Below are positions 1,641 through 3,480 of a DNA stretch of 25,040 bases, piece after piece (the first letter of the stretch is position 1; each line of letters starts with the position of its first letter). Origin of the DNA: Chloroflexota bacterium (GTDB taxonomy: Bacteria > Chloroflexota > Limnocylindria > Limnocylindrales > CSP1-4); NCBI GenBank assembly GCA_027457005.1, contig DAIDTV010000001.1, forward strand, positions 272 through 25,311. Reading direction: 5' to 3'. The notes beneath the pieces are model-generated. The model ran no database searches and had not been told where the DNA came from. It saw only the letters and a program-made list of their open reading frames with translations. The translations under genes were made by a program, and so were the position numbers.

Positions 1641-1697
1641 CCGGCGGGGCCGTTGCCGGCCGGCGGGGCTGTTACCGGCCGGCGGGGCCTTGCGCCG
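1641..1697. repeat. 19-bp tandem repeat x3 (CCGGCGGGGC...)
   Basis: Units at 1641-1659, 1660-1678 and 1679-1697. Confidence 0.8.
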
Positions 1698-1718
1698 ACG
1701 GCGCCGGTGTGGCAACGT
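1690..1718 (+). promoter_or_regulatory. Candidate promoter for the Cys leader/sulfurtransferase transcript
   Basis: TTGCGC (1690-1695), 17-nt spacer containing TGn (1710-1712), CAACGT (1713-1718). The -10 deviates from consensus at its first base. Confidence 0.45.
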
Positions 1719-1728
1719 TCGCGCCCTG

Positions 1729-1791
1729 ATGCACAACGCCTGCATGTGTCCGTGCCGGTATGCGGCCCTCCGTCCACTGGACGGGGCCTGA
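1729..1791 (+). CDS. Cys-rich leader peptide MHNACMCPCRYAALRPLDGA (20 aa)
   Basis: ATG 1729 to TGA 1791 with Cys codons at 1741, 1747 and 1753. It sits upstream of a terminator hairpin and a sulfur-metabolism gene. Confidence 0.7.
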   Translation: MHNACMCPCRYAALRPLDGA

Positions 1792-1831
1792 GGCGGCGCG
1801 TCCACCAGCCGGCGCCGCATCGCGGGCCAGG

Positions 1832-1866
1832 GCCGCAGTCGGAGACGACTGCGGCTTTCGCATTTT
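1832..1866 (+). terminator. Intrinsic terminator (attenuator) hairpin upstream of the sulfurtransferase
   Basis: Perfect 10-bp stem GCCGCAGTCG (1832-1841) / CGACTGCGGC (1846-1855), GAGA (GNRA) loop, followed by TTTCGCATTTT. Confidence 0.8.
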
Positions 1867-1942
1867 CCGGGGCATCGGCGACCCGCAGGGATCGCGGCCC
1901 ATGCCAGCCCGAGGCAGAGCAGCCGGGCACAGGAGGATCAAG

Positions 1943-2788
1943 GTGAGCGTCCCCACCACGTCGGCCGTCCAGGCGCTCGTGTCGCCGGAGTGGGCCAGGG
2001 AACATCTCGACGACCGGACCGTCCGCTTCGTGGAAGTGGACGTGGACACGACCGCGTATCAGCAGGCGCATCTCCCGGGTGCCGTCGCCTGGGACTGGAC
2101 CACCCAGCTCGCCGACGACGTGCGCCGCGACCTCGCGTCGCGGGAGGACTTCTCGGCGTTGCTGAGCCGTTCAGGGATCGGGCCGGACACGCACGTCGTG
2201 CTGTACGGCGACAACAACGACTGGTTCGCCGCGTGGGCGTACTGGCAGCTCAAGCTGTTCGACTGGCGGAAGGTCAGCCTGCTCGACGGCGGGCGGCGGT
2301 ACTGGCTCGACAACGGCTACCCGATCACCACCGACGTCCCCGGTTACCCTGAGACCGGCATCCGGCTTCCCGAGCCCTCGTACGCACTGCGAGCGTTCCG
2401 CGACGACATCCTGCCGAACGTCGGCGGCGGTGCCATCGCGCTGGTCGACGTGCGCTCGCCGGCCGAATTCGAGGGCGAGGTGATCGCGCCTCCCGGCATG
2501 ACCGAGACCGCGCAGCGGGGCGGCCACATCCCGGGCGCCGCGTCGATCCCCTGGTCGCAGGCGGTGGCAGACGACGGCCGCTTCAGGGCCCCGGATGAGC
2601 TGCGCCGGCTCTACGGCTCGAAGGGCATCACGCCCGACCGGGACGTCATCGCCTACTGCCGGATCGGCGAACGCTCGAGCCACACCTGGTTCGTGCTCCA
2701 CGAGCTGCTGGGCTACCCGAAGGTCCGCAACTACGACGGCTCCTGGACCGAGTGGGGTTCGATGGTGGGCGTGCCCATCGAGAAGTAG
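1943..2788 (+). CDS. Two-domain thiosulfate/3-mercaptopyruvate sulfurtransferase (CysA2/SseA-like rhodanese)
   Basis: Motifs FVEVDVDTTAYQQAHLPGAV, VVLYGDNNDWFAA, active-site loop YCRIGERSS and NYDGSWTEWG. SD AGGAGG (1931-1936) lies 6 nt before GTG 1943; the track start at 1760 is too long. Confidence 0.95.
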   Translation: MSVPTTSAVQALVSPEWAREHLDDRTVRFVEVDVDTTAYQQAHLPGAVAWDWTTQLADDVRRDLASREDFSALLSRSGIGPDTHVVLYGDNNDWFAAWAYWQLKLFDWRKVSLLDGGRRYWLDNGYPITTDVPGYPETGIRLPEPSYALRAFRDDILPNVGGGAIALVDVRSPAEFEGEVIAPPGMTETAQRGGHIPGAASIPWSQAVADDGRFRAPDELRRLYGSKGITPDRDVIAYCRIGERSSHTWFVLHELLGYPKVRNYDGSWTEWGSMVGVPIEK

Positions 2789-2893: not shown

Positions 2894-3373
2894 CTACTCC
2901 CAGCGGTGATAGGCGAGATGGCCCGGCCGGACGGCCACGAAGATGCCACGGAAGGTTGCGCACCGCTCCTCGTGTGCCTCGAGCACGGACTCGACCGTGG
3001 CCCGGTCGCCGCTCAGTTCCACCACGCGCGCCCGCAGCGTGACCGGGCCGTCCGTCGGGGTCGGCCGCAGGAGGCGCACCTCGAATGAGGCGGTGACCGT
3101 GGCCGGGACCTGGTCGCTGCCCGCCGCCCGCATCAGGGCCACCGCCGCCGCCCAGTTGCTGTGACAGTCGAGCAACGTGCCGATGACACCGCCGTTGAGC
3201 GCGCCGGGGAACGCCTCGTAGCGGGTCTCGGGCCGCCACTCCGCGACGACCTCGTCACCGCGTTCGAAGCTGCGGAGGTGGAGTCCGGCAGGGTTGGCGG
3301 GCCCACAGCCGTAGCAGACGCTCCGGGGGGCCAGCAGCTCCTGCAGGCTCTGCCTGGCATGCGTCTCGGTCAT
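2894..3373 (-). CDS. PaaI-family (hot-dog fold) thioesterase
   Basis: Motifs CYGCGPANPAGLHL, FPGALNGGVIGTLLDCHS and VTASFEVRLLRPTP. ATG 3373 lies 7 nt after TACACT (3386-3381). Confidence 0.9.
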   Translation of the reverse strand: MTETHARQSLQELLAPRSVCYGCGPANPAGLHLRSFERGDEVVAEWRPETRYEAFPGALNGGVIGTLLDCHSNWAAAVALMRAAGSDQVPATVTASFEVRLLRPTPTDGPVTLRARVVELSGDRATVESVLEAHEERCATFRGIFVAVRPGHLAYHRWE

Positions 3374-3480
3374 GCGCGGCAGTGTACGCGGGGGTCCGCT
3401 CGCGGGACGTGGGCCGGGGCCTCGCGGCCGGAAACGGCGGGGCGGTGGCTGGATCGGCCCGCGTGCAGTACCGTGCACGG

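Follow-up and report, generated by a model that had tools for sequence, protein, structure and literature searches.

The question raised by this locus is whether leader-peptide attenuation, a textbook mechanism for tryptophan, histidine, leucine, threonine, isoleucine/valine and phenylalanine, also serves cysteine. The window, meaning the whole 25,040-nt stretch of DNA analyzed here, comes from a 60%-complete metagenome-assembled genome (MAG; GenBank assembly GCA_027457005.1, contig DAIDTV010000001.1, positions 272 to 25,311, forward strand); the gene and the sequence around it have their closest named relatives among Chloroflexota/Candidatus Limnocylindrales MAGs, and the locus is present in mine-drainage metagenomes. 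It combines a short open reading frame (ORF) containing several Cys codons, a hairpin with a T-rich tail, and a rhodanese gene (Table 1), in which an earlier note, made from the letters of the DNA, had seen a cysteine-sensing terminator/antiterminator attenuator of a sulfurtransferase gene. Comparison of related leaders and predicted RNA folds support that proposal; the locus probably controls the rhodanese gene by ribosome-mediated transcription attenuation in response to charged tRNA-Cys.

Table 1. Predicted elements of the leader and the gene that follows it, in window coordinates.
Feature	Position	Strand	Description
Promoter	1690–1718	+	-35 TTGCGC (1690–1695); 17-nt spacer ending in TGG (extended -10); -10 CAACGT (1713–1718)
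Leader ORF	1729–1791	+	20 codons and TGA, read from the sequence and translated; ATG at 1729, TGA at 1789–1791
Sensor Cys codons 5, 7 and 9 of the leader ORF	1741–1743, 1747–1749, 1753–1755	+	C-M-C-P-C
Region 1 (codons 7–10)	1747–1758	+	5' strand of the long-range helix H0; RNAalifold consensus; competes with the junction when ribosome-free
P1 5' strand (antiterminator)	1761–1769	+	Perfect 9-nt complement of 1829–1837 (terminator 5' arm)
P2 hairpin	1770–1784	+	6 bp, loop ACU, in the 3' part of the leader ORF; top of the hairpin described in the earlier note; possible pause hairpin
P3 and hairpin 2	1785–1828	+	P3, 1785–1790 with 1823–1828, around hairpin 2, 1793–1799 with 1812–1818; stop codon in P3 5' strand
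Intrinsic terminator (predicted)	1829–1866	+	13-bp stem 1829–1841/1846–1858; loop GAGA; tail UUUCGCAUUUU
Regulated gene	1931–2788	+	Two-domain CysA/SseA-type thiosulfate sulfurtransferase, 281 aa; Shine-Dalgarno AGGAGGA (1931–1937), GTG at 1943

The identity of the regulated gene is well defined: the Pfam Rhodanese family matched two stretches of the product, which also matched the solved structures 1UAR from Thermus and 3HWI/3AAX from M. tuberculosis with E-values of about 1e-91, and its single Cys among 281 residues lies within the CRIGERS active-site loop. The gene is monocistronic, since the next gene (2894–3478, a thioesterase on the minus strand) is convergent. A longer rhodanese N-terminus starting from ATG 1760 was considered and rejected, because homologs and solved structures align from residue 7–10 onward, both GTG 1943 and its Shine-Dalgarno site are conserved, and indels occur in the spacer. 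Upstream of the leader, the gene for a DUF1684 protein ends at 1593; the hairpin is not the terminator of this gene, as different genomes have different genes upstream of the leader, which itself remains coupled to the rhodanese gene, and for the same reason the leader module can be assigned to the rhodanese gene. Four tandem copies of a 19-nt unit (approximately CCGGCCGGCGGGGCYGTTR) occupy positions 1618–1710, from the end of the DUF1684 spacer into the -35 element of the leader; these units are absent from the orthologous spacers. Searches of sequencing runs recovered the locus in DNA runs (mine-drainage metagenomes) only and in no RNA run, and four metatranscriptomes contained nothing across the leader, only short, 90–95% identical rhodanese-coding pieces from other organisms.

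The 20-residue upstream ORF (uORF) with its C-M-C-P-C cluster was as the earlier note had read it. Its start codon lies 10 nt past the -10 element and is not preceded by a Shine-Dalgarno site; since the distance is so short, the leader mRNA is predicted to be leaderless or to carry an untranslated leader of at most about 4 nt. A consensus sigma-70 scan called no promoter in this region of the window; little or no variation is seen in the -35 and -10 hexamers or in the interval between them across an alignment of 12 leaders, and the distance from the -10 element to the start codon is 6–10 nt in paralogous leaders. In the same alignment the start, stop and length of the leader ORF are maintained with no indels, while the loop of hairpin 2 does have indels. 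Ten of the known leaders are functional copies (from seven genomes and three metagenome contigs); each carries two to five Cys codons, at positions 2, 5, 7, 8, 9 and 14, with TGT at codon 7 in every one and at most three Cys codons adjacent to each other. Cysteine makes up 17.5% of these leader peptides vs. 1% of the proteome, and TGY triplets are concentrated in the uORF frame (35, vs. 8 and 2 in the other two frames). Cys codons come and go between leaders yet remain enriched, and solely in this frame. Non-genic short ORFs with at least three Cys in six codons are rare in this genome (32 of 4221, or 0.8%), and among 108 terminator-like sites only the one at this locus is preceded by an ORF of this kind; a terminator-anchored scan, a scan for Cys-rich short ORFs and a covariance model revealed no further Cys leader in this 60%-complete genome.

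The leader is conserved together with the rhodanese gene. Orthologous rhodanese genes, 77–85% identical, occur in 7 of 14 genomes of the genus, and every copy is preceded by a -35 element (TTGCGC or TTGCAC), a 17-nt spacer, an extended -10 element, a 20-codon ORF, the hairpins and the terminator; no leader was found in the seven genomes of the genus that lack the orthologous rhodanese. The more divergent copy L008 has a 22-codon ORF with C-R-C and a spacing between -10 element and GTG that is compatible with a leaderless start, and a C-x-C(-P) uORF is retained before the rhodanese gene in more distant genera of the family. A paralogous rhodanese copy found in two genomes (L002, 1233–1425, G012:C181; L112, 1219–1411, G009:C10) keeps the 20-codon ORF and the hairpins; it has Arg or Pro at every Cys position, and its terminator stem contains one or two mismatched pairs. 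In G009 an insertion of about 2.6 kb, with genes for an IS110-family transposase and an rve/HTH_38 integrase, interrupts the rhodanese gene. With their mismatched terminators and one split gene, these Cys-less copies look like decaying units under relaxed selection.

The peptide ends in R-P-P-D-G-A in nine of the ten leaders, and in R-P-L-D-G-A in the window (1771–1788). P-P-D is an EF-P-dependent slow motif in E. coli; here it could keep the ribosome over P1–P3 during synthesis of the terminator, or it could merely reflect the hairpin sequence.

The hairpin between the leader ORF and the rhodanese gene is predicted to be an intrinsic terminator. The perfect 10-bp inverted repeat with a T-rich tail that was described from the sequence was recovered in a repeat search (1832–1841/1846–1855), and RNAfold extended this core to 13 pairs with a free energy of -23.4 kcal/mol. 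The tail (UUUCGCAUUUU) is T-rich but imperfect, and a simple consensus terminator scan called no terminator at this site; the GNRA loop is not kept in orthologs. The stem is 93.6% paired across 12 leaders, with a double change from G-C to C-G in the top pair, and an A-U pair has become G-C in L008. In this divergent copy the gap between terminator and Shine-Dalgarno site is only about 7 nt; the tail thus adjoins the ribosome-binding site and leaves no space for a second promoter before the gene. The stretch between terminator and gene is not conserved.

A repeat search also confirmed the 9-nt complementarity between 1761–1769 and the 5' arm of the terminator. On its own this complement does not exceed chance expectation, because the 400-nt spacer, with 70% G+C, contains four such perfect 9-nt pairs. 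The region 1725–1870 folds 3.3 standard deviations better than dinucleotide shuffles. In a transcript that ends at the terminator loop, P1 forms together with P2 and P3/hairpin 2 as a three-way junction, with a free energy of -55.6 kcal/mol in the window leader vs. -37.2 kcal/mol when the terminator 5' arm is held single-stranded; this junction is the minimum free energy (MFE) structure of the truncated transcript in 10 of 10 rhodanese leaders, and it is predicted to form before the 3' arm of the terminator is made. The P1 duplex is present in 15 of 15 leaders (6–10 bp, -9.7 to -22.4 kcal/mol), and both of its strands are altered between paralogs, where a C:G pair has been inserted and a U:A pair replaced by G:C. 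P2 is 95.8–96.7% paired across the alignment and shows no covariation.

The competing structure differs from the one first envisaged. The earlier note had assigned this role to a hairpin at 1764–1788 that would sequester the antiterminator; the hairpin folds as described (-15.4 kcal/mol), but its top (1770–1784) coexists with P1 in the three-way junction and only the 4-bp GGCC base is exchanged, so that a function as anti-antiterminator was rejected. In most orthologs the competitor is formed instead by the codons for Cys7 to Arg10, whose partner in the RNAalifold consensus of the full leaders is the stretch immediately 5' of the terminator. This helix, H0, is 96% paired and includes two pairs with double changes, and its observed covariation score was reached by 10 of 500 shuffles; in the window leader H0 is weaker, and the MFE structure pairs 1751–1757 with 1794–1800 instead. 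Upstream of orthologs, the Cys uORF was found in all ten functional copies and paired changes were found in H0 and the terminator; P1 covariation within the genus alone was indistinguishable from shuffles.

As a kinetic proxy for the coupling between translation and RNA folding, a 28-nt ribosome footprint was stepped along the uORF, and the probability of P1 was computed in transcripts truncated at the terminator loop. For eight of the ten leaders this probability was about 0 when the leader was free and rose to 0.65–0.98 with codons 5–8 in the A site. With the A site at codon 9 it fell to 0 in these eight leaders and to 0–0.4 overall; it was 0 at codons 10–18 in 10 of 10 leaders, and at the stop codon eight of the ten again gave 0. 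Cys5, Cys7 and Cys8 fall into the permissive part of this profile, which is the behavior expected of an attenuator, and a ribosome placed at Cys5 or Cys7 indeed allowed the antiterminator to form in silico, as had been proposed. The reservation raised at the same time about Cys9 also held: this residue is present in 8 of 10 leaders, and a ribosome stalled there would cover P1. The window leader and L004 depart from the general pattern, with a weaker H0, P1 probabilities of 0.98 and 0.85 when ribosome-free and P1 formally also present at the stop codon. In the window leader P1 is abolished only by a ribosome within codons 10–18; since P1 forms without a ribosome, the model suggests that this copy may lack a default-off state and may be on when untranslated.

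At equilibrium the picture is different. Folding with and without ribosome masks reproduced a switch in truncated transcripts of 8 of 10 leaders, but the terminator remained the MFE structure of the complete leader throughout. Its advantage was 4–15 kcal/mol in the free leader and 0.7–13 kcal/mol when the A site held codon 5 or 7; in the 3' segment without a ribosome (1758–1866) it was 2.7 kcal/mol for the window and 1–13 kcal/mol for the other leaders. Since the terminator is the MFE structure under all ribosome masks, the switch must be kinetic, as in classical systems, and equilibrium folding alone cannot demonstrate it.

From these elements we infer leader translation, ribosome stalling, termination and a response to cysteine, in the following sequence. 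Transcription would start at ATG 1729 or a few bases before it, and the leader would be translated even though it lacks a Shine-Dalgarno site. Under cysteine shortage, the ribosome would stall with Cys5 or Cys7 in the A site (Cys8 would also be usable in relatives), masking the segment of Cys codons while 1761–1769 stays free; as the polymerase advances, the transcript would then fold into the three-way junction of P1, P2, and P3 with hairpin 2. The junction would hold the lower half of the terminator 5' arm, so that the terminator could not close and the polymerase would read into the rhodanese gene, whose product would supply sulfur from thiosulfate. With ample cysteine, the ribosome would cross codons 10–20 and melt P1, P2 and P3; after its release the Cys-codon segment would, in most relatives, base-pair with the stretch immediately ahead of the terminator. 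The 13-bp terminator would then form, and transcription would end near 1858–1866.

Other explanations of the same elements have to be weighed against this mechanism. The uORF could be translated and regulate the gene in cis by a route other than the P1/terminator switch, with the hairpin acting as a constitutive partial terminator or stabilizer, or with Cys stalling acting through Rho and polarity, mRNA decay or general translation stress, comparable to whiB7-type uORFs. The thermodynamic preference for the terminator in all modeled states is in accord with such a route, as are the P1 covariation that could not be separated from shuffles within the genus, the weak U tract, the position of Cys9, which misfits the switch, and the Rho-dependent control that has been proposed for Cys leaders (Seliverstov et al., 2005; PMC1262725). 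We nevertheless consider it improbable, since the P1 duplex recurs in 15 leaders with both strands changed between paralogs, its modeled formation depends sharply on the position of the ribosome, as classical attenuation predicts, and both the stem of the terminator and its T-rich tail have been kept, with compensatory changes.

Two further possibilities, which detach the Cys codons from regulation of the rhodanese gene by a stalled ribosome, appear more remote. If the leader were an independent small gene for a Cys-rich peptide (for example, metal- or sulfur-binding) with its own terminator, the rhodanese promoter would lie downstream; the ORF does end ahead of a strong terminator, and within the genus the C-terminal half of its product (A-A-[LF]-R-P-P-D-G-A) shows high conservation. 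Yet the codons of this conserved half are invariant at third positions and build the hairpin stems, the same RNA motif occurs in another codon phase in the related leader L130, the N-terminal residues vary freely except for Cys, and the sensor residues change with the target gene. The peptide matched no family in NCBIfam 20 at E-values up to 0.01; moreover, the unconserved stretch between terminator and gene, with about 7 nt before the Shine-Dalgarno site in L008, argues against a downstream promoter, and a small gene of this kind is very unlikely. There is similarly little to recommend a ligand- or protein-binding riboregulator, akin to a riboswitch, in which the Cys codons would be incidental: a three-way junction followed by a terminator does resemble riboswitch expression platforms, and the paralog without Cys codons keeps the structure, but the enrichment of TGY is limited to the ORF frame and arises at new in-frame positions in different lineages, Met replaces Cys before genes of the Met pathway, and the Cys-less copies have mismatched terminators, with one of the two genes split by IS elements, and look decaying. 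No Rfam 15 family reached its gathering score with the leader RNA, and a search at E-values up to 5 identified none, the best match having E = 1.

The ribosome-mediated attenuator thus remains the preferred reading, and related leaders extend it to other genes. A covariance model built from the ten rhodanese leaders and used to search relatives gave matches that are weaker yet plainly related and that stand in front of other sulfur genes. These leaders share a uORF end of the form R-R-P-R-R-x-E/K-D-G-V/A, the P2 hairpin, the terminator, and a P1 5' strand GCGGCCCCG with its partner CGGGGCCGC. In a member of the same genus (L130, 1502–1658, G011:C52), a leader with the uORF core C-V-C-M-C and a -10 element seven nt before the ATG precedes a NIR_SIR sulfite/nitrite reductase gene, followed by siroheme synthase; the GCGGCC motif occupies a different codon phase in this leader, which points to constraint on the RNA rather than on the peptide. 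In other genera, leaders with M-C-M and M-C-R-C are found before an OsmC-like gene (L133) and the gene of a family-3 solute-binding (SBP_bac_3) lipoprotein (L134), respectively, and leaders with M-C-M and M-Q-M before Cys_Met_Meta_PP genes for PLP enzymes (L139 and L135). The M-Q-M leader, which has no Cys at all, suggests a methionine-sensing derivative; the sensor codons follow the target pathway, with Met replacing Cys before Met-pathway genes.

Cys-rich short ORFs also occur ahead of more distant orthologs of the rhodanese gene: an upstream short ORF with at least three Cys in six codons was found at 9 of 78 loci, and at none on the reverse strand. Several orthologous rhodanese genes are preceded by short ORFs with CCC or CCCC runs or with a conserved end (...W-P-A-Q-R-L-T-H-I-P-A-C-F-C-S); these loci include Acidobacteriota MAGs (L053, L067, L073, L074, L078, L079, L085), Dormibacterota and Chloroflexi-named MAGs (L075, L086, L099, L109), as well as L039 and L054. 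Small-genome relatives of the same order (L016–L024) have a strongly conserved 16-codon ORF about 150 nt before the rhodanese start, M-T-S-[MT]-Q-L-R-A-L-E-G-E-P-S-I-C-stop, in which the single Cys is the last sense codon; this ORF starts 6 nt past an extended -10 element (TGGTATCGT). In other genera of the family (L009–L014, L031–L034), the rhodanese gene follows a conserved gene ending in ...IEDSSRVDPWIVRQA..., and a short C-x-C-P-[ER]-R-A-R-S uORF lies between the two, sometimes overlapping the upstream stop or the rhodanese start; no U-tract terminator is evident in these sequences, and the wiring may differ.

The nearest functional counterparts are the polycysteine, leaderless short ORFs of mycobacteria (Ms5788A/Rv0815A, the "Cys ribulon"), which mask the Shine-Dalgarno site of the next gene and involve no terminator; uORF attenuation for cysteine was stated to be previously undescribed when these were reported (Canestrari et al., 2020, doi 10.1101/834739). 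Both systems use a short ORF with Cys codons, predicted in the present case to be leaderless or nearly so, would sense cysteine through ribosome stalling, control a CysA2-type thiosulfate sulfurtransferase (part of an operon in mycobacteria), and equip several sulfur loci with such leaders. The mycobacterial parallel drawn in the earlier note therefore holds for the enzyme family under control, but not for the mode of regulation. The mycobacterial Cys codons form a consecutive run at the 3' end of the ORF and pair with the Shine-Dalgarno region of the next gene; here they are spaced as C-x-C-x-C in the 5' half and pair within the leader, and in a fold of 1690–1945 the last 12 nt, holding most of the Shine-Dalgarno site, are unpaired. 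In contrast to mycobacteria, an intrinsic terminator and an overlapping antiterminator lie between uORF and gene, and the peptides are unrelated in sequence. An independent instance outside mycobacteria, as the earlier note had suspected, is thus supported, with the correction that the host is a Chloroflexota MAG and the instance lies outside the phylum altogether.

In its predicted logic the leader resembles E. coli trpL, Salmonella hisL and the M. tuberculosis ilvB1 uORF (PMC13236596): the position of the ribosome would select between mutually exclusive antiterminator and terminator structures, and the terminator is the more stable of the two, so that the antiterminator would win by forming first. 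It differs from these examples in sensing cysteine, in targeting one sulfurtransferase gene instead of a biosynthetic operon, in using one arm of a three-way junction instead of a simple 2:3 hairpin as antiterminator, in a probably leaderless mRNA, and in that the window copy is modeled without a default-off state when untranslated. Candidate Cys leader peptides of Mycobacterium, Propionibacterium acnes and Bifidobacterium longum had previously come from comparative genomics; they were described as "without obvious terminators," and control by Rho was proposed for them (Seliverstov et al., 2005; PMC1262725). The present leaders share with these candidates short ORFs with Cys codons before genes of cysteine metabolism, but add a conserved intrinsic terminator and antiterminator. 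No cysteine leader peptide combined with an intrinsic terminator was found in the literature searched, nor any from Chloroflexota.

The one case that has been tested for cysteine in this literature acts on translation and is limited to mycobacteria; a classical terminator/antiterminator in a conserved cysteine leader of Chloroflexota would add a new amino acid, a new wiring and a barely studied phylum to the range of leader-peptide attenuation. The indications are evenly balanced on a broader scenario, in which one ancestral module, consisting of a leaderless uORF, a three-way-junction antiterminator and an intrinsic terminator, was copied within this Limnocylindrales family before genes for rhodanese, sulfite reductase and siroheme synthase, solute-binding protein, sulfhydrylase and OsmC-like proteins, and was retuned by swaps of Cys and Met sensor codons; it would constitute a terminator-based "ribulon" for sulfur amino acids, independent of the mycobacterial one. 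If this is true, the Cys-rich uORFs in Acidobacteriota, Dormibacterota and other phyla would indicate that CysA-type rhodanese is a core cysteine-starvation gene whose wiring arose convergently across bacteria. The change from Cys to Met sensor codons among paralogous leaders would represent a natural experiment on the retargeting of an attenuator, and leaders of this type would provide a sequence-only marker for cysteine-starvation-induced genes in uncultured bacteria, one that singles out the CysA-type rhodanese.
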